From Candidatus Bathyarchaeota archaeon (GTDB lineage: Archaea > Thermoproteota > Bathyarchaeia > Bathyarchaeales > Bathycorpusculaceae), in NCBI GenBank assembly GCA_963775465.1, contig CAVZIW010000011.1:15913-79912 (forward strand): a DNA stretch of 64,000 nucleotides. Direction: 5' to 3'. A program made the position numbers and the translations under genes. This document shows, in pieces, positions 19,598 through 50,676 of this stretch. Within the stretch, counting starts at the first letter, position 1, and every line of letters starts with the position of its first letter. A model generated the notes under the pieces. It had not been told where the DNA came from and searched no databases. It saw only the letters and a list, made by a program, of their open reading frames with translations.

Positions 19598-19956
19598 AAG
19601 GAACAGACCATTTTGCCAAAACTTTAGGCATTGAAGTCCTCGAATCAAAAGATGGCTTCGCAAAAGTCTGCATGAAAGTAGAAAAAGCGCACACTAACGC
19701 TTTAGGTTTTACTCATGGTGGCGCAATCTTTTCTCTGGCAGATTATGCTTTTGCATTAGCTTGTAACTTTGGCGATAACGTTGCAGTTGCAGTTCAAGTT
19801 GATATAAAATTTCTAAAACCTACCGTTGAAGGAGACATCCTAACAGCTGAGGCAACAAGGGTTTCTGAGGGCAAGACCACGGGACTTTACCAAGTTATGG
19901 TGCTCAAAATAGATAAAATCGTGGCAGTTTTTTCAGGTCTTGCTTTCAAAAAATAA
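19594..19956 (+). CDS. paaI: PaaI-family hotdog thioesterase
   Basis: NALGFTHGGAIFSLADYAF. Confidence 0.9.
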   Translation: MKGTDHFAKTLGIEVLESKDGFAKVCMKVEKAHTNALGFTHGGAIFSLADYAFALACNFGDNVAVAVQVDIKFLKPTVEGDILTAEATRVSEGKTTGLYQVMVLKIDKIVAVFSGLAFKK

Positions 19957-20043
19957 GAGTTAAAGCGAACAAACTAACGCTTGAAAAAGGATAACCAGCC
20001 GCCAACAATATTTTTATGTCAGACTCTAACCTACAGTTATGTT

Positions 20044-20119
20044 GCTGGGGTGGCCGAATGGTTCAGGCGGTAGCCTGCAGAGCTGCTATATATGGGTTCA
20101 ATTCCCATCCCCAGCTCCA
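20044..20119 (+). tRNA. tRNA-Cys (GCA), CCA encoded
   Basis: GCTGGGG/CCCCAGC acceptor stem, anticodon loop CTGCAGA, GGTTCAATTCC T arm, ends TCCA. Confidence 0.95.
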
Positions 20120-20218
20120 GGAATTACGCGGATTCGTCACAAACCCTATTTTTTGATATACGAATACTTATGTAAATTAAATAACCTCCCTTGATTCTTT
20201 CTACCGCTTCTTTAGAGC
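20099..20218 (+). repeat. 120-bp direct repeat copy A (tRNA-Cys 3' core + arm + remnant of a glycosyltransferase 3' end)
   Basis: Matches 22549..22668, including identical GCGGATTCGTCACAAACCCTATTTTTTG and ACGAATACTTATGTAAATTAAA. Confidence 0.92.
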
Positions 20219-20493
20219 TCCGCTTGACCAGCGCGTCGAACGTGTTGAATGTTTTTTCGCGTTCTAGGTACTGTTTACAACCCACAGATATTTTTCTAAA
20301 TACAGCCCAAACTTAACTCCTCTTATCCATATTTCACAAGGATTTGAAGCACTATTTAAAACGAAACCGCCCTCGGTTAGAACATCGGTGTTTACTGAGT
20401 AACTGATTAGTATGTGAACGGTTTTTAGAGTGCGCATAGTAAATATCCGAGTAAACAATCTCAGACAGGGGAGATAGGAGCAAGATTAGCTAC

Positions 20494-21666
20494 ATGAAAC
20501 GAAACTGCCCCAAAATAATCGCCACTGTAATCATTATCTTTGGGCTTCTAGTTACAATTCCAATTGTCGATACAATAATTAGTGGACCAGTGGCCGCGAG
20601 CGATATTTTTGTGGGTTTAGATATTGGCTACGGAGATGACCAGACAGCAATTGAGCAAATCGACAAAGTCGCAGACTATATAAACCTGATTGTCTTGGGT
20701 TCACTTGACATAACCATGAATACCGAGAATTTAACCCGGGTATGCGACTACATATTCCAAAAAGGTCTCCACTTTATCGTTTACGTGGGTTTCGGTGAGG
20801 GATCAGAAGATGCGCCGCCAAGAGGTCCCAGCTCCCAATTCTTCAATAATGCAATTGACAGGTATGGCAACAAATTTTTAGGAGTTTATCTCTTCGATGA
20901 AGTCGGAGGCAAACTCATGGATGGCGCGCATTCAGTTAACCTCACCGCTGCGGATACGTATTCAGATGCAGCCATCCTCTATACACATCACCTCAACTTC
21001 TACTTGGGAAACGTAAGCCAATTTTATGCACCAGCAGATTTCCCACTTTATACGTCTGATTATGCACTTTTCTGGTACAACTACGTGGCTGGCTATGACG
21101 TAGTTTTTACCGAATACGTTGGTAACCAAAGCAGGGAAATCGCCACTGGACTCTGCAGGGGAGCAGCTAAAACCTTAAACAAAGACTGGGGTGTAATAAT
21201 CACATGGTCACATGAACTAGAATCCTTTGTCGAAAATCCTGAACAACTTTATGATGACATGGTGCTCGCATACCAAAATGGCGCAAAATACATCGTTGTA
21301 TTCAACTCGCCAGCCCAATTCACTCCACCCACGCAATACGGAACCCTGACTGAAAAGCACCTGGAAAAAATGCAGCAATTCTGGAACTACATCCACCATA
21401 AACCTTCAGTGGACCTTTACCTAGCTAATACTGCCTTCGTTCTCCCAAAAGACTACGGCTACGGGTTTCGTGGACCTGACGACAAAATATGGGGCAAATG
21501 GGAACCAGACACGCTTTCCCCACAAGTATGGGCAAACGTCCAACAGCTCTTAGACGCACATGCTATGTCTCTGGACATAGTGTATGAAACTAGAATCGAC
21601 TCTCAAACCTTAACCCTCCCATATAATAGGTTAATCTACTGGAACGGCACAGTGATTCAAAAATAG
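20494..21666 (+). CDS. Hypothetical membrane-anchored/secreted protein, possibly glycoside-hydrolase-like TIM barrel
   Basis: 390-aa ORF with GGAG SD, N-terminal hydrophobic helix, GVYLFDEVGG; function is inference only. Confidence 0.7.
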   Translation: MKRNCPKIIATVIIIFGLLVTIPIVDTIISGPVAASDIFVGLDIGYGDDQTAIEQIDKVADYINLIVLGSLDITMNTENLTRVCDYIFQKGLHFIVYVGFGEGSEDAPPRGPSSQFFNNAIDRYGNKFLGVYLFDEVGGKLMDGAHSVNLTAADTYSDAAILYTHHLNFYLGNVSQFYAPADFPLYTSDYALFWYNYVAGYDVVFTEYVGNQSREIATGLCRGAAKTLNKDWGVIITWSHELESFVENPEQLYDDMVLAYQNGAKYIVVFNSPAQFTPPTQYGTLTEKHLEKMQQFWNYIHHKPSVDLYLANTAFVLPKDYGYGFRGPDDKIWGKWEPDTLSPQVWANVQQLLDAHAMSLDIVYETRIDSQTLTLPYNRLIYWNGTVIQK

Positions 21667-21944
21667 AAAATCCTGCATACTTCTTGGATGTTGGATTTAA
21701 ACCAGGAAAGCAGCAAGTTTCCTATTACACATACACATTTATTTAATCGACGAAGTCACAACCTAACATTGGTTCAATTTCCTCTAATTATAAATTAGAA
21801 GGCATTTGAAAGTCGCTAACATAAGCAAATAAAAGAAGAAGCCTCGGTGACTTGTCCAGTTCACCCCTAGCCGGTCTTATTTCAACAATTACAGTAGTTA
21901 ATAGGAGTTGTCGATGAGGATTCGCTAAAGATACCAAACTTGTT

Positions 21945-22415
21945 TTACTTGGTTTCTTCTGGAAAGAGTTTTCTCCCTTTTTCTGTGAATTCAATTAAGC
22001 CAAGTTTATTGAAGAAGTCTATTTGATCATCTAGTTCTTCCGTTTCTACAAGTTTTCCATTGACTATACGGAAGAAGAAAACCATGTTCATTGTTATTTT
22101 TTTGCCTGTGGCGGGTAATGGAACACCAAAGAGGTTCCAGTCGCCACTATGCGTTCCGGTTGCTTTTACACGAACCCAGACTTTTTCTCCTTCAGAAATT
22201 ATATCCTCAATTTCTTCGTGCCAATCTGGGAAACCATCAAAAGCTAAAGTAAATAATTGCTTAAATTTATCTCTGCCTTTCTGCTGATGCGTACGATCAA
22301 CAAAATCTGGCGCTACAAGTTCTTCAAATATTCCCAAGTTTCTATCATTATAGGCTTCAATAAACCTGCTAAGAATTGCCTTATTCTCTTGGATTGTCAT
22401 TAAGAAATTCACCAT
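21945..22415 (-). CDS. SnoaL-like ester cyclase (NTF2 fold)
   Basis: ENKAI, FPDWHEEIEDIISEGEKV, GTHSG, PATGKKI, FRIVNGKLVE. Confidence 0.88.
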   Translation of the reverse strand: MVNFLMTIQENKAILSRFIEAYNDRNLGIFEELVAPDFVDRTHQQKGRDKFKQLFTLAFDGFPDWHEEIEDIISEGEKVWVRVKATGTHSGDWNLFGVPLPATGKKITMNMVFFFRIVNGKLVETEELDDQIDFFNKLGLIEFTEKGRKLFPEETK

Positions 22416-22548
22416 TAAAATTGTCTAAATAAAACTATTAAATTTTTCTTTTGATTTCCTTGTCACACTGCAATATTACATACTCACATTCGAACCCAAA
22501 CAAACAAGAAAAATGAAAAATTGCTGAGGTTTTCCGTTGCATTAGATG

Positions 22549-22668
22549 CAATTCTCAACCCCAGCGCCATGTAGTATGCGGATTCGTCACAAACCCTATT
22601 TTTTGGATACACGAATACTTATGTAAATTAAAAAAGTTCATTGATTCTTTCTGTCGCTTCTTTAGAGC
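22549..22668 (+). repeat. 120-bp direct repeat copy B
   Basis: 2450 bp downstream of copy A; begins CAATTCTCAACCCCAGCGCCA (degenerate tRNA-Cys 3' end). Confidence 0.92.
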
Positions 22669-23827
22669 CATTAATCGGTATTTTTGCATAATCAACTTCT
22701 TTATCAATGTTTGAAAATACTGTTTCTGCTAATAATTCAGGAGTGGTTTTTGAACAAACCATTTTGACGCCGGCCTTATGACGTTGACACCTGCTGGACA
22801 CACTAACTTCTTGTTCAAAATGCTGTTCAAGCGGAAAGTAGAGAAAAGGTTTTTCGAGAGCTGTCAACTCGAGAGTTATCGTCCCACCGCCAGAAACAAT
22901 ACAAAGGTCAGCAGCCCCCATGTGCCTGTAGAGGTTTGGCACATACCCTAAAACATCGATTCCTTCAGGTGCCTTAATCAACTCAGTTGATAAACGTGGT
23001 CCAGAAACCAAAATCACCCTAATATTGGGAATTCTTGATCTCACTAAAGGGTATGCTCTAATACATAAATCAAAAAGGCTTTTCCCTGCGATGGTACCAC
23101 CAATCGAACAAACAACAAGGGGTTCATCTTTATAACCCAAGAGCTTTCGAGCCATCGACTTGTCCTTATATCTCTCGATATCTTCAGGAACGACATATCC
23201 AACAAAATCCACCCTCTTCTCTGCAATTTTGCGACGATTTGGAAGCATAAATCCAAAGCTTCTGTCAGGCACATCTTCAAATTCTCCAATGAAAAAGCTC
23301 TTATCAGCAAGAGGCGGTTCACTTCTCAAGAACTTGAGCCAAAGCTTGTTAATCAAATAAGCGGCGAGATGGTCAACAGGGTTCCATGTGGAAGCGTCCA
23401 AGCCTAAAAAATCATAAATAACCACAAAGGGACATTTTTTCAATATTTGACTATTTACCATGGCAATCATAATATCGTACGGTTCATCCCCAATCCAGAG
23501 GTCAAAATCATAAGAATTCAAAATCTTCGCGTAGACTTCACCATTCTTAACCCAACCCTTTCGCACATTCATAGCCCACTGAACCAAGTTAGCTTTGTAT
23601 TCTTTAGCTGTTTTTTCCATAACAGAATTTGATGAAAACAATAGGTCAGCTTCGGGCAGTAGATTTTCTCCATTCCTCTTCAAAACATCTGATGCTGGAG
23701 ATTCAGCCATCCAAGATATTTCAATTTCAGGGCGAAGTTTTCTTAAAGCTTTAGCAATTTCAATATCTCTTCCAACATGCCCTAAACCGAGTGAACCACT
23801 AATAAAGAGAATTCTCTTCAATTTCAC
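22628..23827 (-). CDS. GT-B fold glycosyltransferase (GT28/GT1-like)
   Basis: GSLGLGHVGRD, SIGGT, GYVPNLY, GGGTITLE, HFEQ; GGAGG SD. Confidence 0.85.
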   Translation of the reverse strand: MKLKRILFISGSLGLGHVGRDIEIAKALRKLRPEIEISWMAESPASDVLKRNGENLLPEADLLFSSNSVMEKTAKEYKANLVQWAMNVRKGWVKNGEVYAKILNSYDFDLWIGDEPYDIMIAMVNSQILKKCPFVVIYDFLGLDASTWNPVDHLAAYLINKLWLKFLRSEPPLADKSFFIGEFEDVPDRSFGFMLPNRRKIAEKRVDFVGYVVPEDIERYKDKSMARKLLGYKDEPLVVCSIGGTIAGKSLFDLCIRAYPLVRSRIPNIRVILVSGPRLSTELIKAPEGIDVLGYVPNLYRHMGAADLCIVSGGGTITLELTALEKPFLYFPLEQHFEQEVSVSSRCQRHKAGVKMVCSKTTPELLAETVFSNIDKEVDYAKIPINGSKEATERINELF

Positions 23828-23964
23828 ATACCTCCTTTTGTGTCTTGTTGAGAGAACGCCTAAACCACAATTGCCTTTCTGCGTTTCTTGTATTTAGCTT
23901 GTTTCCCTTAAGGGATCAAACAGCATTTCAAAAATAAAAACGGTTTCGGAGATTTCTACACTAT

Positions 23965-23990
23965 CATTGAACGCAATTCCCAGCCCCCGC
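23965..23990 (+). repeat. Third degenerate tRNA-Cys 3' core (attR-like) followed by a T-run
   Basis: CAATTCCCAGCCCCCGC matches the tRNA's CAATTCCCATCCCCAGC at 15/17; the 26-mer from 23965 matches 22540..22565 at 20/26. Confidence 0.65.
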
Positions 23991-24196
23991 CTCTTTTTCC
24001 GAACTCCAATCTCTCAAGTGACTATTTGCATTTTCTGAAAAGCTTTCAATCGTCTATTGCACAAACATATTCGAATGCGTTTTCGATTAGCTGGCTAGTC
24101 CGTGAAGCGTTTTGGACCAAACTATAAGGTGCACTTCAGCATTTTTGTTTTAGCATATTTTAAATATCTAACCCCATTAACTAGTATTGGGAAAAA

Positions 24197-24400
24197 GTGT
24201 TGCAAGTACAAAATGCATGCTTCAATGATTTCCCTGATCAATGTGCAGAATGCCCAGATTATTGCGAAACAAAGGTAGAACCCCTAAGCCAATACCCGTG
24301 GCTCGCCGAGATTGTTACGATGTACCCGCCTAATTTTGCTAGTAAAGTGGTTAAAGAATGCAAGCGGTACCACAAACGAAAAGTTGAATACTCACAATAA
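24197..24400 (+). CDS. Small Cys-rich hypothetical protein
   Basis: CFNDFPDQCAECPDYC...ECKRY; TATA-like TTTTAAATA upstream. Confidence 0.55.
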   Translation: MLQVQNACFNDFPDQCAECPDYCETKVEPLSQYPWLAEIVTMYPPNFASKVVKECKRYHKRKVEYSQ

Positions 24401-24700
24401 CAAGAAGCCAAAACAACTTTGAAATACCAAAAGCCAAGAAATTTGACGTCGAATGAAAATTATCGGGGAAGAGCATCAAATTCTAGGGGACTTCTTGTAT
24501 TGCGAAACGCACGAAATCTGAAATCCGTCCGCTAAAAATCCACTTATTCCCCTCTGAAGGTCAAGAGGTAAAGCACGTGGGCCCGAAAAATTCGTCAAAA
24601 AATTTCGGGGAGTCTTGCAATCTTAGATGTTTCAATGAAGGAGATTGACAGCACTAATTTCTAGCAAAAAAGTTATGTTCCAGCACAACTGATATTCAAA

Positions 24701-24982
24701 TTGGTTAATGCCTTGTCAACGTTATCGACCAATCAGCGATTAAGGATCGCGTTAGGAGGATTTGTTTCCTTCACTGGATTCTTAGTTTTGGTCATTGTTA
24801 TTTTGGTTGCCACGGGTTCAGTAGAAATTCAAAGCCTGTTTCAAAGTGGAGTTATGGTTGGGGCAGTGGCATTTCTGGGTTTTTTGGATGTTTTCTGTGG
24901 ATTTTTCTTGGTTTTTAGAGAAAAAAGTTTGAAAGAATTATTCTCGTCCGAAAAAAAGAAAACCGACAATAATATTGAGTAA
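24701..24982 (+). CDS. Small 2-TM membrane protein
   Basis: Two hydrophobic helices; similar to 24938..25273 and to the permease C-terminus. Confidence 0.7.
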   Translation: MVNALSTLSTNQRLRIALGGFVSFTGFLVLVIVILVATGSVEIQSLFQSGVMVGAVAFLGFLDVFCGFFLVFREKSLKELFSSEKKKTDNNIE

Positions 24983-25273
24983 ACCTACGAACACCCACAA
25001 TCCCATACTCAGCGAACCACTTTCTGATGAAACCAAGATACCCGCTGTTTTCCCTGTTACACCCATAAATGCAAATAATAAAACAAGCAAAAACCCCGTT
25101 GCAATAACGGTTACACCTATGTATCTACTGATTTTCTTTGGAAATTGAAGTACTTTAAACCTTTCTTCTTCTAGAGACTTTTCAACTGTCTTTTGATATT
25201 GTCTTTCCTCAGAAACAGCGGGTTTGGAAGGCGCTTTGACAGTTATTTCCTTATTTTCTTCTTCTGAAGACAT
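24938..25273 (-). CDS. Small 2-TM membrane protein with charged N-terminus
   Basis: GGAGG SD; two TM helices ending GLLNIIVGFLFFGRE. Confidence 0.75.
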   Translation of the reverse strand: MSSEEENKEITVKAPSKPAVSEERQYQKTVEKSLEEERFKVLQFPKKISRYIGVTVIATGFLLVLLFAFMGVTGKTAGILVSSESGSLSMGLWVFVGLLNIIVGFLFFGRE

Positions 25274-25403
25274 ACAAAGCTCGCCTCCGAGACATTACCA
25301 TTTAATGTTTACAAGTTAAAAATTCTTTGCCTTCAGTCCCATTCGTTGGAACCAAAGAGCAAGTCTTATAGCTCTCTAGCGGGATATCCAGTTAGGTTGA
25401 TGG

Positions 25404-27044
25404 TTGACTGCTTTGCAAAAATCCACGGAAAAAACCATTCTGCCTTTTGCGACTTATCAAACCAACGAAGTCTTCAACGACGATGCCGAGAAAGCTGCAG
25501 TTTTCTGTACCGCAGAACTAGATAGACAAAAAGGCGGAAGATTCTTCAAGAAACAAGATTCCGAAAAAATAGTTTTCATTTCGAAAGTGCTTTACCCTTT
25601 TTGGATCGTACCTCTAAAGGATTTAAGTATCCTAATAGATGGATTAAACGTTCCTTCTCATACAATAAGCTACCCTATTTTACCCGACCTCAAAGCATTC
25701 ATAGAAAAACTAAGAGACCCGTCAATGACACGTCAAGTTCATGCAACCTTTTTAGCCAATAACCAAAACTACTTCCAAAATTCAAATTCGGTCCAGACCT
25801 TAAAAATTGAAGGTTTAATGAACGATACCGAATTTGTTAAGGAATTTTTAGAATATGCAAAACAGGCAGCAACAATTGATTCACCAATAAACGATTCTGT
25901 CCTAGTTACACCTGCTATGAATGAAGCTAATGTTTCAAAAATTGTCCAAAACATCGAAAACACAAGAACACAACTATCAGAAGAATTAGGAAGCCTTAAC
26001 GAAATTATCAAGCTCTTGAACAATAAAACTCGGGAATCTCAAACTGCCTTAAACAAAGAAATCAAATCCGTTGAGGATGAATACAAATTCAAAATCCAAA
26101 AAGTTAAAACTGTTTTAAAGATTAATGTCGCTAAAATCAATAAGGCATATTCAGATCAGGTTACCCAAATCACTAATAAGTTCGAACAAAAAATGGCAAA
26201 CCTTCACAAAGATTTTGTGAAGTTCGAAAAGGATAAAGAAAAGTTAGATATCGAAATCGAGCGAGCTGAAGCAGAAATAAAGACTTCAGCAATAAACAAA
26301 GATGACATAACTGAGCAAAAATGGAAGATAAAACGAAAAAAGCTGAAAGAGAAACAGCCAGAAATAGCTTCAAATTTGAAGGAAATTCAAAAACAAATAA
26401 ATGAAGCGGAAGAAATTCAAAAAAACGTCATATTTCAACTCAAACAAGATACAGAGCTGAAGATTAAACAAGCCAGCAAAGATCTGGCTGAACTTGAAGC
26501 TTCCCAAGATGCAGAAATCAAAGTTTATCAAAATCAAATAGAAAAGATTGAAGAGTTAACTTCAAATATAATCAAAAAAGTCGACGAATTAGCCATAAGT
26601 AGAGAAAATACTTTACCGGAATTTGACCAGTTGGGAGTAAAGGAGAAGAGAGAAATGAAATCGCTGGTTTATATGCCATTTTACCTTTCATGCTACCAAT
26701 CTAAATCCAAAAAACGCTTCGCATACTTGGCTCCATCAATTGTAAACAAAGATTGTTTAAGCACTAGGCTAAAAGCTTTGGGAAAAACCAAAATCAGGCA
26801 ATTACTTGAACCGAAGTCAAAAAAGATAACTGCAATATTAAATGGGTTCATCCGCCTATTGGAAGAAAATATTGTTTTTAACCGAGAAATTTCGGAAGCT
26901 TGCATGAAAGCAAACCTCTTAAGAACCAGAAACGCAAGTGAGGCTACGAAGAACGGACTAAACAAATTAAAGCAAGAAGGTTGGCTATCAAACAGTGAAA
27001 GTGAGGATCTCAATCAAGCGGTCATTCAGTATTTTTCTGACTAA
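25404..27044 (+). CDS. Hypothetical long coiled-coil protein
   Basis: 546-aa ORF; K/E/Q-rich heptad region flanked by globular segments carrying LYPFW and YMPFY. Confidence 0.8.
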   Translation: MTALQKSTEKTILPFATYQTNEVFNDDAEKAAVFCTAELDRQKGGRFFKKQDSEKIVFISKVLYPFWIVPLKDLSILIDGLNVPSHTISYPILPDLKAFIEKLRDPSMTRQVHATFLANNQNYFQNSNSVQTLKIEGLMNDTEFVKEFLEYAKQAATIDSPINDSVLVTPAMNEANVSKIVQNIENTRTQLSEELGSLNEIIKLLNNKTRESQTALNKEIKSVEDEYKFKIQKVKTVLKINVAKINKAYSDQVTQITNKFEQKMANLHKDFVKFEKDKEKLDIEIERAEAEIKTSAINKDDITEQKWKIKRKKLKEKQPEIASNLKEIQKQINEAEEIQKNVIFQLKQDTELKIKQASKDLAELEASQDAEIKVYQNQIEKIEELTSNIIKKVDELAISRENTLPEFDQLGVKEKREMKSLVYMPFYLSCYQSKSKKRFAYLAPSIVNKDCLSTRLKALGKTKIRQLLEPKSKKITAILNGFIRLLEENIVFNREISEACMKANLLRTRNASEATKNGLNKLKQEGWLSNSESEDLNQAVIQYFSD

Positions 27045-28588
27045 TACCGCTTTTGTTTGGTACGGTCTGTTCAAACCGATTTTTCTTTTTTCCTGCGCTG
27101 ATATTAAAAAAGCCTGTCACAATGAGAATCAGGCTTACGGAAAGCTGGATGTAGTTTGGAATAAAAGGCAAGATATTGAAAAACGAAAAAATTGCTAGAA
27201 AAACACCTACACCGATACCTATGCCGCCTAGAGCAATTTGCGTGCGATAACGACCCACCATTCTAAGATAATAACTAACAAGAACTATCCCTGTAAGCCC
27301 AATGCTCGAAATTAAAGCGTCAATCGCATTTCCATCTCCAATAAGTACAGGAATAAAGAGAAGAGCAACTGAGAGAATGACCCCTAAAATTGGCGTAAAG
27401 GGATAAAGAGGTGTTTTGAAAGGTCGATCCATGTACGGCTTTGTTTTCCGCAATCGAATCAAAGAAAGGTTGACAACTGCAAAAACCAGAAGAGAGCCAA
27501 AACTAGCAGCATAACCTAGAAAAGGTATAGCACCCAGAGAGCTTAATAGCATAATGAAAACTGTTCCAACCATGACAGCGACATGAAAAGTTCCGTATTT
27601 CGAATGGATCGAGAGAAGAATTTTAGGAAAGTAGCCGTCTCGACTCATACCGCGGGAAATGCTAGATTGAATAGATAGAGAAGTTCCGAGTGCAGAAAGA
27701 CAAGCCGCCATTCCAGCAATTGAAAAGATTATGCTACCATAGCTGCCAAATACTCTGCCCGCTGCAAAACTCAGAAGAGGAACCTGCTCAAGAACTTCAG
27801 CAGGAGTTACGGTACTGACAGCCACTAATGCCTAGAAGAACATAAATGGGGATAATAAATAATGCAGATATTATAAGTCCTCGGGAGATGTCTTTTTCTG
27901 GTCTTTTAGATTCTGAAGCAGCCGCTACTATAGCTCTAGTTCCAATAAACATTGGAAAAACGTAAACTACTGCAGCGAAGATACCCGATATACCGCTTCC
28001 CAGGGGAGCAGGGGTAAGGTTTACAGTGGTGACACCCTGGAGAAAGCCTCCGATAATAAAACCTACGAACAACAAGATGAAAGCAAGAACAGCTATGTTT
28101 CCAATTTGCCTATACCCTCGAACTTCCACAAGACCCATGGCGATAATGAGAACTATTGAGATTATCCATGATTGAGCCAAAATACCGTTTTGGACTTGAG
28201 GGGAAATTGCTGAAAAAAGATACGAGAGTTGCAGGACAAAAGCCACGGCCGCTAGTGCAGCAGCAAAAATACTGGCAAGCCATCGGAAGCACCCAAAAAT
28301 GAAGCTAATGTAACCGCCATAGGCTGTTTTAATGTAAGTGTATTCACCGCCAACTTTTGGCATCGCTGTAGCTAATTCACAGTAGCTGAGCATTATTAAG
28401 AAATTGATCACTCCACCCAATGCAAGAGCAATAAGCATGTTAGGTCCTGCTAGATGAAAATAAGCATAATTTAGAAGCACAAAGATTTCAAAGCCTATTG
28501 CGCCGCTCAACCCTGCCATTACGATGTCAAATAATCCGAATCCTTTGGTTTTCTTGGTTGGGTTTTGGCTCACAGGTTTTCCCGCCAT
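27022..28588 (-). pseudogene. APC-family amino acid permease split by a single-base frameshift
   Basis: YCELATAMPKVGGEYTY in the N half; MSRDGYFPK and RPFKTPLYP in the C half. Removing one G at 27831-27832 restores YVLLALVAVSTV. Confidence 0.85.
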
Positions 28589-28800
28589 TCATAAATTAGA
28601 AAGATGCCGCTTATCAGAAATACAATGCCGAAAATAAAAAGCATAGTTACAAAGAAAAAGACTGTTTGATCTGGAATATTAAGCCATGATTGAACGCCGA
28701 ATAAATTGAAATTCAAGAATAATGATAGGATTAACGCGGAGAGAGCGATAATACTCTGGATTGACGCAAAAATGAATTTGACTGTAATTCTTCCGCCCAC
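28570..28800 (-). CDS. Small 2-TM membrane protein overlapping the permease start
   Basis: Two hydrophobic helices; overlaps the permease start by 19 nt. Confidence 0.7.
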   Translation of the reverse strand: MGGRITVKFIFASIQSIIALSALILSLFLNFNLFGVQSWLNIPDQTVFFFVTMLFIFGIVFLISGIFLIYEWRENL

Positions 28801-28890
28801 ACAGCTCCACTCTTCTAAATTGGGAATATTTAACTATATAATTGATTCGGAGAACACCAAGGTAGCAGAAAATTCTTTCTTAGGTGGATT

Positions 28891-29301
28891 TTATTCGTTC
28901 TTGAAATATTCCTTCAGTGGATTCCAATAAAATTCTGTCCAACCCTCTTCAATCTCATAGGCTTGCGCTTTAGGAACATTAGAGTGTACCATACATATTT
29001 CTGTGCCATCAGGGACTTTGGTAAAGGTCATCTCCAATTTTGAAGCAGGGTAGCCTTCTTCCCAATCCGTAGTAGTCCATTCTTGAATCAAACGTTTACC
29101 ATCTTCTAGCAGCAAAAATTTGCCAAAAATATACCCATCCCAAGCAGTAAATTTTCCGTTAACCGTGGGTTTTCCCGTTGCTTTGCTGTCAGTAAATTCT
29201 TCTTGTTTTTTTGGGTCCACATAGGAATCGTATACTTGTCTAGGAGAAACATTTGGGATTATCACTTTCTGTGTTATTGTTGTCACTTCAAGCTTTTTCA
29301 A
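28891..29301 (-). CDS. SRPBCC/AHSA1-like domain protein
   Basis: FTAWDGYI, LIQEW, HSNVP, GWTEFYWNPLK. Confidence 0.88.
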   Translation of the reverse strand: MKKLEVTTITQKVIIPNVSPRQVYDSYVDPKKQEEFTDSKATGKPTVNGKFTAWDGYIFGKFLLLEDGKRLIQEWTTTDWEEGYPASKLEMTFTKVPDGTEICMVHSNVPKAQAYEIEEGWTEFYWNPLKEYFKNE

Positions 29302-49794: not shown

Positions 49795-50676
49795 ATGAAG
49801 GTAATCTCGGGTCCCGCGTCCAAAGAACTTGCTGAAGCAATTTCAGCGCAAACTGGTTTCCCAAACGTTCCCGTTTTATCCAAGTTTTTTCCTGATGGCG
49901 AGTCTTACGTTCGTTTAGACGGCAATGTCAAAGATGAAGATGTAGCAATTGTTCAGACAACTTGCCCTCCCATGCAAGATAGCAGGCTTTTTCAATTGGC
50001 GTTTTTAGCTGATGCAGCTAAACGTGCAGGAGCCGCTAAAGTAACTGCAGTGGTGCCCTATTTGGCGTATGCTAGACAAGACAAAATGTTTCTCGCAGGG
50101 GAAGGAATAAGCGTGGAAACCATTGTACGCATGCTAAAAGCAGCAGGAATCGACCGTTTTTTAACCGTCAACATCCACTCGGAACCAACACTCAAGCAAT
50201 TCCCATTTCCAGCTGAAACCCTAAGTGCTATCCCACTAATAGCAGACTACTTTTCTAAGAAAGGCCACAAAGGCGCATACGCTCTATCACCTGATAAAGG
50301 CGCAATGTACATCGCTAAGCAAGCTCAAGAGGTTTTAGGCGGCGACGTAGGATATCTTAGCAAGACTCGCGACCGCTACACGGGGCAAACCGTGCAAACA
50401 GCGGAGGGCTTAAACGTAAAGAACAAAACCGTGATTATCCTTGATGACATTATCAGCACAGGCGGCACCATAGTTGGTGCAGCAAAAATTCTTCGGGAAC
50501 AGGGAGCCAAACATGTCTTTTGCGGTTGCGTCCACGGCTTACTCATTGGTGATGCTGAGAAGCGAATTTCGGATGCAGGAGTTGAAGAAATCGTTGGTAC
50601 CGACAGCGTTCCCGGAAACATAAGTAAGGTTTCGTTGGCACCACTGATTAGTCAAGCTCTTAAAGGCGCTGTTTAG
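49795..50676 (+). CDS. prs: Ribose-phosphate pyrophosphokinase
   Basis: FPDGE, PYLAYARQD, SPDKGA, DDIISTGGT. Confidence 0.96.
   Translation: MKVISGPASKELAEAISAQTGFPNVPVLSKFFPDGESYVRLDGNVKDEDVAIVQTTCPPMQDSRLFQLAFLADAAKRAGAAKVTAVVPYLAYARQDKMFLAGEGISVETIVRMLKAAGIDRFLTVNIHSEPTLKQFPFPAETLSAIPLIADYFSKKGHKGAYALSPDKGAMYIAKQAQEVLGGDVGYLSKTRDRYTGQTVQTAEGLNVKNKTVIILDDIISTGGTIVGAAKILREQGAKHVFCGCVHGLLIGDAEKRISDAGVEEIVGTDSVPGNISKVSLAPLISQALKGAV

Follow-up and report, generated by a model that had tools for sequence, protein, structure and literature searches.

CIMEs, known from ICESt1-related elements of Streptococcus thermophilus, are elements that have lost their integration genes while keeping attL and attR; they accrete in tandem at the 3' end of the gene they target, the array growing as each newcomer enters a flanking att site (PMC5704250). 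Tycheposons of Prochlorococcus use tyrosine recombinases at tRNA genes, with newcomers pushing older elements inward, and their islands contain partial tRNAs, fragmented integrases and niche-adaptation cargo (bioRxiv 10.1101/2020.12.28.424599). Some integrated plasmids and proviruses of archaea carry a non-split tyrosine integrase and insert at tRNA genes, tandem integration included (PMC8371274, PMC6563490).

A literature search, mostly at the level of abstracts, returned no account of a Bathyarchaeota tRNA-Cys hotspot or of small att-bounded modules without an integrase. The window, that is, the whole stretch of 64,000 nucleotides analysed here, belongs to one genome (G000) of the Bathyarchaeota, which are abundant, uncultured archaea of sediment and soil; how they exchange genes is, to our knowledge, almost unknown. 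The original prediction proposed two related, integrase-less circles inserted one after the other at the tRNA-Cys 3' end, as an integron-like cassette system mobilised in trans, and it is partly supported. The segment 20116-28890 is probably a strain-variable island, formed by repeated site-specific integration at this 3' end and containing non-autonomous, CIME-like modules for which an integrase would have acted in trans.

Organisation of the tRNA-Cys array

The island and its target gene comprise the following features.

20044-20119, + strand: tRNA-Cys(GCA) (ARAGORN; Rfam RF00005, 59.7 bits)
20116-20218, + strand: P' arm of module 1, matching that of module 2 at 87% identity
20494-21666, + strand: 390-aa cargo protein of module 1, with an N-terminal hydrophobic segment
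21945-22415, - strand: SnoaL-like protein of module 1, 156 aa (PF07366, E 8.7e-27)
22505-22546, + strand: P arm of module 1, an A-rich stretch followed by TTGCTGAGGTTTTCCGTTGCATTAGA, weakly aligning to the P arm of module 2
22547-22565, + strand: core copy 2 (TGCAATTCTCAACCCCAGC), the junction of modules 1 and 2
22566-22668, + strand: P' arm of module 2, overlapping the 3' end of the glycosyltransferase (GT) gene
22628-23827, - strand: GT-B type glycosyltransferase of module 2, 399 aa (GT28 C-terminal domain / GT1-like)
23925-23971, + strand: P arm of module 2 (AAAAATAAAAACGGTTTCGGAGATTTCTACACTATCATTGAA), aligning with its orthologue in G095, another species
23972-23990, + strand: core copy 3 (CGCAATTCCCAGCCCCCGC), inside which homology to G095 ends and homology to G022, the closest relative, starts
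23991-24114, - strand: P' arm of a third, integrase-bearing element, with an integrase pseudogene remnant inside
24115-28890, no strand: rest of the variable island, with small ORFs, a 546-aa Bathyarchaeota-specific protein and a split amino-acid permease

The tRNA-Cys gene is intact, and direct repeats of its 3' part flank the inserted DNA, which is joined to the last bases of the gene (core 20097-20115 plus TCCA). Allowing up to three mismatches, the 17-mer core CAATTCCCATCCCCAGC has four matches in the 64 kb window against 0.09 expected, at 20099 (no mismatch), 22549, 23974 and 50197 (two mismatches each). The match at 50197 lies inside ORF 49795-50676 and looks like chance, so the core by itself is not decisive and its context is. 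The predicted recurrence of the core at 22549 and 23974 was confirmed, the proposed order tRNA-core-P'...P-core-P'...P-core is supported, and core-to-core spacings of 2450 and 1425 bp agree with the module sizes of about 2.45 and 1.42 kb given earlier. In core copies 2 and 3, 4 of 19 positions do not match the tRNA, so that the array may be a fossil of some age; some of these mismatches (TGCAAC) are common to the same P-arm subtype in G095 and in another relative, G011, which suggests element-specific sequence and not decay.

The stretch following the core, expected to be shared over about 100 bp by the tRNA copy and the copy at 22549, is indeed 87% identical over 120 nt (20099-20218 against 22549-22668), and a second alignment gave 87.4% over 103 nt (E 1e-27). 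In module 2 this arm holds the last ~14 codons of the GT gene, and a decayed copy of these codons follows the tRNA at 20178-20219 on the - strand (SKEAVERI and SKEATERI in the two translations); a second colinear GT remnant at about 20395-20439 is weak (E 0.62). From these remnants module 1 looks like a rearranged GT-type module and is therefore not simply a second independent circle. The predicted succession of two related circles thus fits in its layout and in the arms that the modules share, but not in the nature of module 1 or in the number of elements, which is three.

The likeness predicted for the sequences before copies 2 and 3 is present but weak, with a gapped alignment of 67% over 61 nt that includes the 19-nt core (E 5e-4 in a search of 266 by 266 nt). 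A P-arm family profile built from relatives detected neither P arm of the window; the G095 orthologue of the module 2 P arm is a clear member, and the family, which includes the GT module through this orthologue, also precedes integrase-type arms. Apart from its two copies in G000, the P' arm of the GT module was seen in G095 alone (L110 12534-12645). A dedicated search of 120 genomes returned no further copy of it and is insensitive, since it also missed the known copy in G095.

The glycosyltransferase matches Pfam families PF04101 (1.2e-6) and PF13692 (6e-6), while all its NCBIfam matches fall under the cut-off. The 390-aa protein has no family in Pfam or NCBIfam; its first Atlas matches (scores of 0.98 in Bathyarchaeota clusters and 0.85 for GH_cat) place it in a Bathyarchaeota-specific family and give a weak lead to a glycosyl-hydrolase-like fold. 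Its gene recurs with 82% identity in two other genomes (G118 and G098), at other loci, and the SnoaL gene has a paralogue of 74% identity at G000:C10:88826-89298.

As predicted, neither module contains an integrase: the PF00589 domain was not found in the three module ORFs, and no integrase remnant was detected in modules 1 and 2 at E values up to 10. The flank past copy 3 had been taken for the original terminator side (B') of the tRNA gene, but it belongs to a third element, whose P' arm it forms, and it contains a tyrosine integrase pseudogene cut down to its final 30 codons (24025-24114). The 418-aa integrase of a relative, G005, aligned here by tblastn over residues 389-418 with 47% identity (E 5e-4) and one internal stop. 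The array therefore comprises three elements, and an integrase was once present. Copy 3 does lie directly 5' of the T-run CTCTTTTT, as noted earlier, but the run is not peculiar to the last copy, because both other arms have T5-T6 about 30 nt past the core. Between 24115 and 28890, no further core (up to 4 substitutions) and no integrase were found, and synteny with relatives returns at ORF 28891-29301.

The locus in related genomes and public contigs

In G022, the left flank and tRNA gene are 97.3% identical to the window over 524 nt, and the tRNA-Cys itself is identical over 74 nt, after which the sequences diverge. The G022 DNA directly after the tRNA core matches the window DNA after copy 3 (80.5%, 123 nt), and the 3.9 kb from the tRNA core to the third core are absent, which supports this segment as an insertion relative to the closest relative. 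In G095, whose genome is only 56% complete, the same locus is recognised by its left flank (74% over 4142 nt) and right flank (70-78%). In this genome, 1412 nt match the GT module (window 22556-23962) with 89% identity, from the left core to inside the right core, with different neighbours on both sides; the GT gene of G095 is split into three ORFs at 89% DNA identity. The GT module is thus supported as a discrete att-bounded unit common to two species.

Across the genus, 16 of the 35 tRNA-Cys loci contain at least one displaced core. Among 23 core-bounded modules, 19 have no integrase match and 10 measure 0.7-2 kb; a 7566 bp interval in L083, with a full tRNA-Cys gene at either end, is no true module. 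A module encoding an RHH and PIN pair is 93% identical between G045 and G011 over 795 nt, from core to core, with unrelated DNA outside, and a second module of G045 is 90% identical to that of G044. The cargo at tRNA-Cys varies among relatives over the 35 loci, in line with what had been anticipated.

The original prediction had named, as the case against it, a single old local duplication. In fuller form, the tRNA 3' end and its flank would have been copied in tandem, no mobile element being involved. The arms are confined to the tRNA-Cys locus within G000 and the P' arms differ by 13%, as such a duplication would have it; yet the segment is absent in G022, the cargo varies over 35 loci, the GT module recurs in G095 and an integrase remnant adjoins copy 3. 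These observations contradict a local duplication, which we regard as scarcely credible.

Contigs of public runs bridge all three junctions: X7 records 22 and 24 cover 19834-20679 and 21761-23059, respectively, and X1 record 8 covers 23017-24300, X1 possibly being the sample behind the window assembly and so perhaps not independent. An X1 contig with the window flank (8 differences in 518 nt) passes from the tRNA core into an integrase-type arm and not into module 1. Two other sequences precede the core plus P' arm 1 in X1 and X2, and other DNA follows position 20119 in X11. These contigs speak for a heterogeneous population; the short pieces among them (55 nt) could come from related organisms. 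The excision joints that the prediction called for (circular form, empty site) were not seen: the contigs of four runs, which drop rare variants, contained no core-to-core joint and no empty-site, module-deleted or circular form.

The integrase family and the formation of the array

Integrase matches were found at 9 of the 41 loci of relatives searched, directly after the core in all but one weak case (G046, 21 aa). At this position G005 and G008 have the whole integrase, G055 has nearly all of it, apparently frameshifted, and the G022 copy is incomplete, in a stretch partly given as N. Only C-terminal remnants were detected in G002 (162 aa), G015 (148 aa), G003 (75 aa) and G011 (49 aa). The G005 element extends 6011 bp from core to core and encodes the integrase (418 aa with an N-terminal zinc ribbon; PF00589, 3e-19) together with an MCM-domain protein (4e-16). 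An SSV-type element was considered and rejected, the integrase ORF being whole in G005 and G008, ending about 65 nt past the core and not split by att. When compared with integron-type integrases, it scored 44.9 bits against the NF011946 model (cut-off 435). The recommended search for a tyrosine recombinase elsewhere in G000 returned no intact close copy of the 418-aa integrase. There are two full-length paralogues, 37% and 31% identical to it; C2 has a frameshifted copy, and C4 has two C-terminal remnants. As no cognate integrase is left, the array can probably no longer move in this genome.

For repeated integration at tRNA-Cys, the recombinase would be this 418-aa family, borne on plasmid-like elements of ~6 kb that also encode an MCM helicase. 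It would recombine a site composed of P arm, core and P' arm with the tRNA gene, at a crossover position that we infer, the core being identical to the T-loop/acceptor 3' part. Each incoming element would bring a new tRNA 3' end and push the old one distally, and later arrivals would stack between the tRNA and earlier elements because the tRNA site is regenerated. The oldest layer would accordingly be the integrase element, reduced to an arm and 30 integrase codons, with two non-autonomous modules in front that keep both arms and carry no integrase; one is the 1.4 kb GT module, and the 2.45 kb module would have GT-type arms and an interior swapped for the genes of a membrane-anchored protein and the SnoaL protein. 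A co-resident or incoming element may have provided the integrase that moved the modules in trans, or they may have been carried along by a neighbour (cis-mobilisation).

The modules could instead be wrecks formed in situ, that is, full-size integrase elements that suffered later deletion and never moved as small units. Integrase loss is frequent at this site, where remnants of 162, 148, 75, 49 and 30 aa form a graded series; the cores are imperfect; internal replacement has happened, as the GT remnant in module 1 indicates; and a review of archaeal recombinases ascribes integrase-less elements presumably to loss after integration (PMC8371274). However, the GT modules of the two species, 89% identical, reach from core to core alike although the DNA beside them differs left and right, so independent decay to the same limits is unlikely, and the RHH and PIN modules behave in the same way. 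Moreover, decayed elements keep C-terminal integrase codons beside the core, whereas modules 1 and 2 have none at E values up to 10. We therefore judge decay in place to be unlikely.

A true integron-like platform, in which a resident integrase at the far end captures and shuffles one- or two-gene cassettes with tRNA-mimicking sites for gene capture at the host level, is decidedly unlikely. Modules of 0.7-3 kb do stand in arrays bounded by conserved repeats of ~20-75 nt; their cargo consists of toxin-antitoxin pairs, typical of chromosomal integrons, plus single enzymes; in the window, in G002 and in G015, the last core is directly followed by an integrase or its remnant; and a conserved P-arm motif recurs beside 3' fragments of several different tRNAs in G000. 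Nevertheless, the integrase scores only 76 bits against the integron integrase model (TIGR02249, cut-off 265) and 88.6 against XerA (cut-off 220), and in G005 it sits in the core-bounded 6 kb element with the MCM helicase. In G022, G008, G055 and G005 it follows the tRNA directly with no cassettes, arrays are short (1-3 modules per locus), gene orientation in the window modules is mixed, and the sites repeat the tRNA 3' end in direct orientation. The integron-like label of the original prediction is thus not borne out.

Returning to repeated integration at tRNA-Cys, a wider reading, which we advance only tentatively as possible but doubtful, is that this Bathyarchaeota genus runs a tRNA-anchored cassette exchange, in which one- or two-gene modules are integrated, excised and exchanged between species as units by the integrases of small MCM plasmids acting in trans. 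It would be a functional archaeal counterpart of integron cassette arrays made of ordinary att sites. The modules so regarded encode glycosyltransferase, SnoaL, nitroreductase and RHH-PIN pairs, and their short sites mimic the tRNA 3' end.

Island building by repeated site-specific insertion is a known route that is little described in Bathyarchaeota. The locus provides a concrete route of gene exchange in these archaea, with a genus-wide tRNA-Cys hotspot at which small recombinase-less modules recur between species, their cargo including cell-envelope sugar enzymes and toxin-antitoxin pairs. If the modules are moved in trans, the 418-aa integrase and a site of ~100 bp would constitute a simple study system for archaeal gene capture, and the modules could be a candidate site-specific insertion tool. 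Fossil modules would make the locus an ordinary decayed island.

Comparison with known systems

CIMEs are a close equivalent of the modules. Both 20116-22565 and 22566-23990 are att-flanked and lack integration genes, and they stand, like CIMEs, in tandem with other elements. Unlike CIMEs, they have an archaeal host, a tRNA target and a plasmid-like partner with an MCM helicase instead of a conjugative element; they are also very small (down to 1.4 kb and one gene), and their mobilisation is proposed here. Archaeal plasmids and proviruses agree with this locus in the tRNA 3' target, the whole integrase, the MCM helicase companion, the tandem arrays and the frequent loss of the integrase. Tycheposons, which are defined by a large tyrosine recombinase and a replication module of their own and were compared by architecture only, resemble it as tRNA-gene islands; their integrase family and hosts are different, and what sets the present locus apart from them is that 19 of 23 units have no integrase match and that at least two kinds of module recur as discrete units between species.

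Integrons (IntI, attI, attC) are similar in that one- or two-gene modules, toxin-antitoxin pairs included, lie between recurring recombination sites and are present or absent independently of their neighbours. However, the integrase here is a non-integron enzyme on a mobile element. Integron cassettes mostly share one orientation behind a common promoter, whereas 20494-21666 lies on the + strand and 21945-22415 and 22628-23827 on the - strand. Finally, attC sites are imperfect inverted repeats that fold as single strands, while the boundary repeats at this locus are direct copies of the tRNA 3' part.

Core copies and arms behind tRNA-Cys

As originally noted, the 3' part of the tRNA-Cys gene recurs behind it: a 17-nt tRNA 3' core is found again at 22549 (copy 2) and 23974 (copy 3), with two mismatches in 17 in each copy, giving core-to-core intervals of 2450 and 1425 bp (modules 1 and 2). 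Allowing up to three mismatches, the window holds four matches against 0.09 expected. The fourth, at 50197, was rejected as a real att copy, since it falls within a coding ORF and resembles a chance match; the core alone is thus little proof, and the context must carry the case.

Features of the locus
20044-20119: tRNA-Cys(GCA), Rfam tRNA (core copy 1)
Module 1: 390-aa membrane-anchored protein assigned to no family, and SnoaL-like protein
Module 2, 22628-23827, - strand: GT-B glycosyltransferase (GT) gene

None of the three cargo proteins is an integrase, and both modules lack one, as had been claimed. The claim of a shared post-core (P') arm also held, with 87% identity over 103-120 nt between the copy in the tRNA and that at 22549. 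The last about 14 GT codons sit inside this arm, and they recur in decayed form behind the tRNA (SKEAVERI vs SKEATERI); a second GT remnant after the tRNA is weak (E 0.62), its order and distance being as in the GT gene. All three core junctions are spanned by contigs from public sequencing runs. At position 20188, within the P' arm and GT remnant, the window has one base absent from all four public runs, either true variation between strains or an error in the assembly. The P' arm of the GT module was found only in the genome carrying the window (G000) and in the related genome G095. A P' arm search of 120 genus genomes returned full length only for the two copies of G000, and 19-31 nt in four others; it is uninformative, because it missed the known G095 copy.

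The sharing of pre-core bases noted between copies 2 and 3 survived only as a weak alignment (67% over 61 nt, core included). An nhmmer profile built from the P (pre-core) arms of 10 relatives detected neither P arm of the window, either across all of its sequence with E up to 10 or in a targeted comparison with 2000 shuffles and 2000 random 60-mers; their putative membership of the P-arm family rests on the alignment of the copy 3 arm with its G095 orthologue. The P-arm motif also occurs in G000 beside 3' fragments of other tRNAs, and a search for the arms elsewhere in the 2.42 Mb G000 assembly gave only chance-level matches of 13-22 nt. In relatives (e.g. loci L056, L068, L072, and L110) and in the G000 matches, the conserved P arm consists of an A-rich stretch followed by TTTTGCGGGTGATATCTCCAC and includes a short palindrome, GGAGAnnTCTCC. 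A GCGGG at the start of the P arm might base-pair with the 3' strand of the acceptor in the core beside it, a hint of a minihelix resembling a tRNA or of a site bound by a dimer.

Integrase element and variable island

The flank of copy 3 had been taken for original chromosome, with the original terminator of the tRNA. It is instead an arm of an element that carries an integrase: the final 30 residues of the 418-aa tyrosine integrase of G005 align to 24025-24114 (- strand) at 47% identity, with E 5e-4 and a single internal stop. Related genomes carry the gene at the same position in several states.

Integrase gene at this position in relatives
G005, G008: full gene
G055: near-full gene, apparent frameshift
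G022: partial gene, stretch partly N
G002 (162 aa), G015 (148 aa), G003 (75 aa), G011 (49 aa): C-terminal remnants

The G005 element measures 6011 bp core to core and encodes the integrase, an MCM-domain protein, and a winged-helix protein. Since the integrase gene stays uninterrupted after integration, an SSV type was ruled out. G002 and G015 repeat the window layout, in which the tRNA is followed by at least one integrase-less module, a core, and the integrase arm. A search for a tyrosine recombinase elsewhere in G000 yielded paralogues of the tRNA-Cys integrase at 37% and 31% identity, as well as a frameshifted copy adjoining tRNA-Leu and further remnants, and no intact close copy was found in that genome.

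In G022, the closest relative found, identity across the thioesterase-tRNA flank is 97.3% (524 nt), and the tRNA core is joined directly to the counterpart of the DNA behind copy 3 in the window (80.5% over 123 nt), the intervening 3.9 kb being absent. Synteny with other relatives restarts only at the ORF 28891-29301, and 20120-28890 is therefore a variable island, conserved sequence lying on either side of it. Several contigs of metagenome-assembled genomes (in G049, G017, and G007) terminate at or inside tRNA-Cys, consistent with assembly breaks from strain-variable DNA behind the tRNA. Inside the island, an amino-acid permease (27022-28588, - strand) is split into two overlapping ORFs and is probably a frameshifted pseudogene.

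Parts of the permease
27797-28588, - strand: part 1, profile positions 1-243
27022-27825, - strand: part 2, profile positions 255-410

Modules in related genomes and populations

G095 shares the tRNA-Cys locus (left flank 74% over 4.1 kb, right flank 70-78%) and holds a GT module 89% identical over 1412 nt (window 22556-23962). The homology starts at the left core and ends inside the right core, with unlike neighbours on both sides; in G095 these are nitroreductase and membrane-protein modules before and an RHH-PIN pair after, and the GT gene is split into three ORFs. Toxin-antitoxin modules elsewhere show the same pattern: from core to core, G045 and G011 share one at 93% identity, beyond which their DNA is unrelated, and G045 and G044 share a second at 90%. 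In these comparisons each module behaves as a unit. A GT protein search for related loci returned only two, both already known from the genome search. Away from tRNA-Cys, at G012:C14:17910-19095 (L004), a GT homologue has decayed heavily, with 39-48% identity and at least 11 stop codons; no tRNA was found in its 3.8 kb locus.

The cargo behind tRNA-Cys was expected to vary among relatives, and it does. At least one displaced core is present in 16 of 35 tRNA-Cys loci of the genus, surveyed over 119 to about 12,000 nt of sequence per locus with a regex that misses degenerate copies. Among 23 core-bounded modules, one of which is a stretch between two complete tRNA-Cys genes, 19 have no integrase match and one has a full integrase. 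The cores are of two kinds, one long and starting in the anticodon arm, the other short, starting in the T arm and preceded by the conserved P arm. Integrases that target tRNA genes typically cross over in the anticodon or T loop. Off the main tRNA-Cys, loci L078-L082 and L089 (G044, G004, G019, G053, G045, and G011) contain paired long tRNA-Cys 3' fragments 750-1450 bp apart, which enclose RHH-PIN pairs, a UPF0175-like and PIN pair, or an AAA ATPase; the only intact tRNA-Cys seen near them is a divergent second one in L081. Long arrays or an anchor at these pairs were rejected, with just 2-4 cores per 6-10 kb and no integrase.

Contigs of four public wetland and soil runs were compared with 19600-24300. 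No core-to-core joint of excision or circle type was listed for them, which is not evidence of absence. The junctions nevertheless vary. On one contig with the same flank (8 differences in 518 nt), the tRNA core is followed by an integrase-type arm where module 1 would stand; two other sequences precede the core and P' arm of module 1 in runs X1 and X2, and other DNA follows 20119 in run X11. The short variant-junction pieces may derive from related organisms.

Elsewhere in G000, outside the window, G000:C4:164696-172675 resembles another stacked island of this type. Modules of this sort may repeatedly carry SnoaL genes; a paralogue lies on contig C10, and SnoaL homologues in other genomes adjoin tRNA-Glu or tRNA-Asn (L096-L098).

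Features on contigs C4 and C10 of G000
C4:10337-10471: another integrase remnant
C4:164696-164773: tRNA-Arg(CCT)
C4:164822-164944: integrase C-terminal remnant, 41 aa, after tRNA-Arg(CCT)
C4:165484, 172567, 172640: P-arm motifs with tRNA-like cores
C10:88739-88773: weak P-arm motif
C10:88826-89298: SnoaL paralogue, 74% identical to 21945-22415, between P-arm motifs
C10:90179-90216: P-arm motif, then tRNA-Leu-like core and integrase-type arm
C10:100745-100789: P-arm motif

Probable tandem accretion and known systems

The locus is best explained as a tRNA integration hotspot at which elements have accreted in tandem. Small modules that are not autonomous but retain both att arms would be mobilised by an integrase acting in trans, or would travel with a neighbour. 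The proposed integron-like system is not supported as an integron in the strict sense, because the integrase fails curated integron-integrase models and belongs to a mobile MCM element, and the genes run in both directions. A literature search, its sources mostly at listing depth, returned no description of this Bathyarchaeota tRNA-Cys hotspot. As far as the excerpts of the sources go, the small att-armed modules match the definition of a CIME (PMC5704250), the growth of the island matches that of tycheposon islands (bioRxiv 10.1101/2020.12.28.424599), and the stacking and integrase loss match archaeal tandem integration and integrase loss (PMC8371274, PMC6563490).
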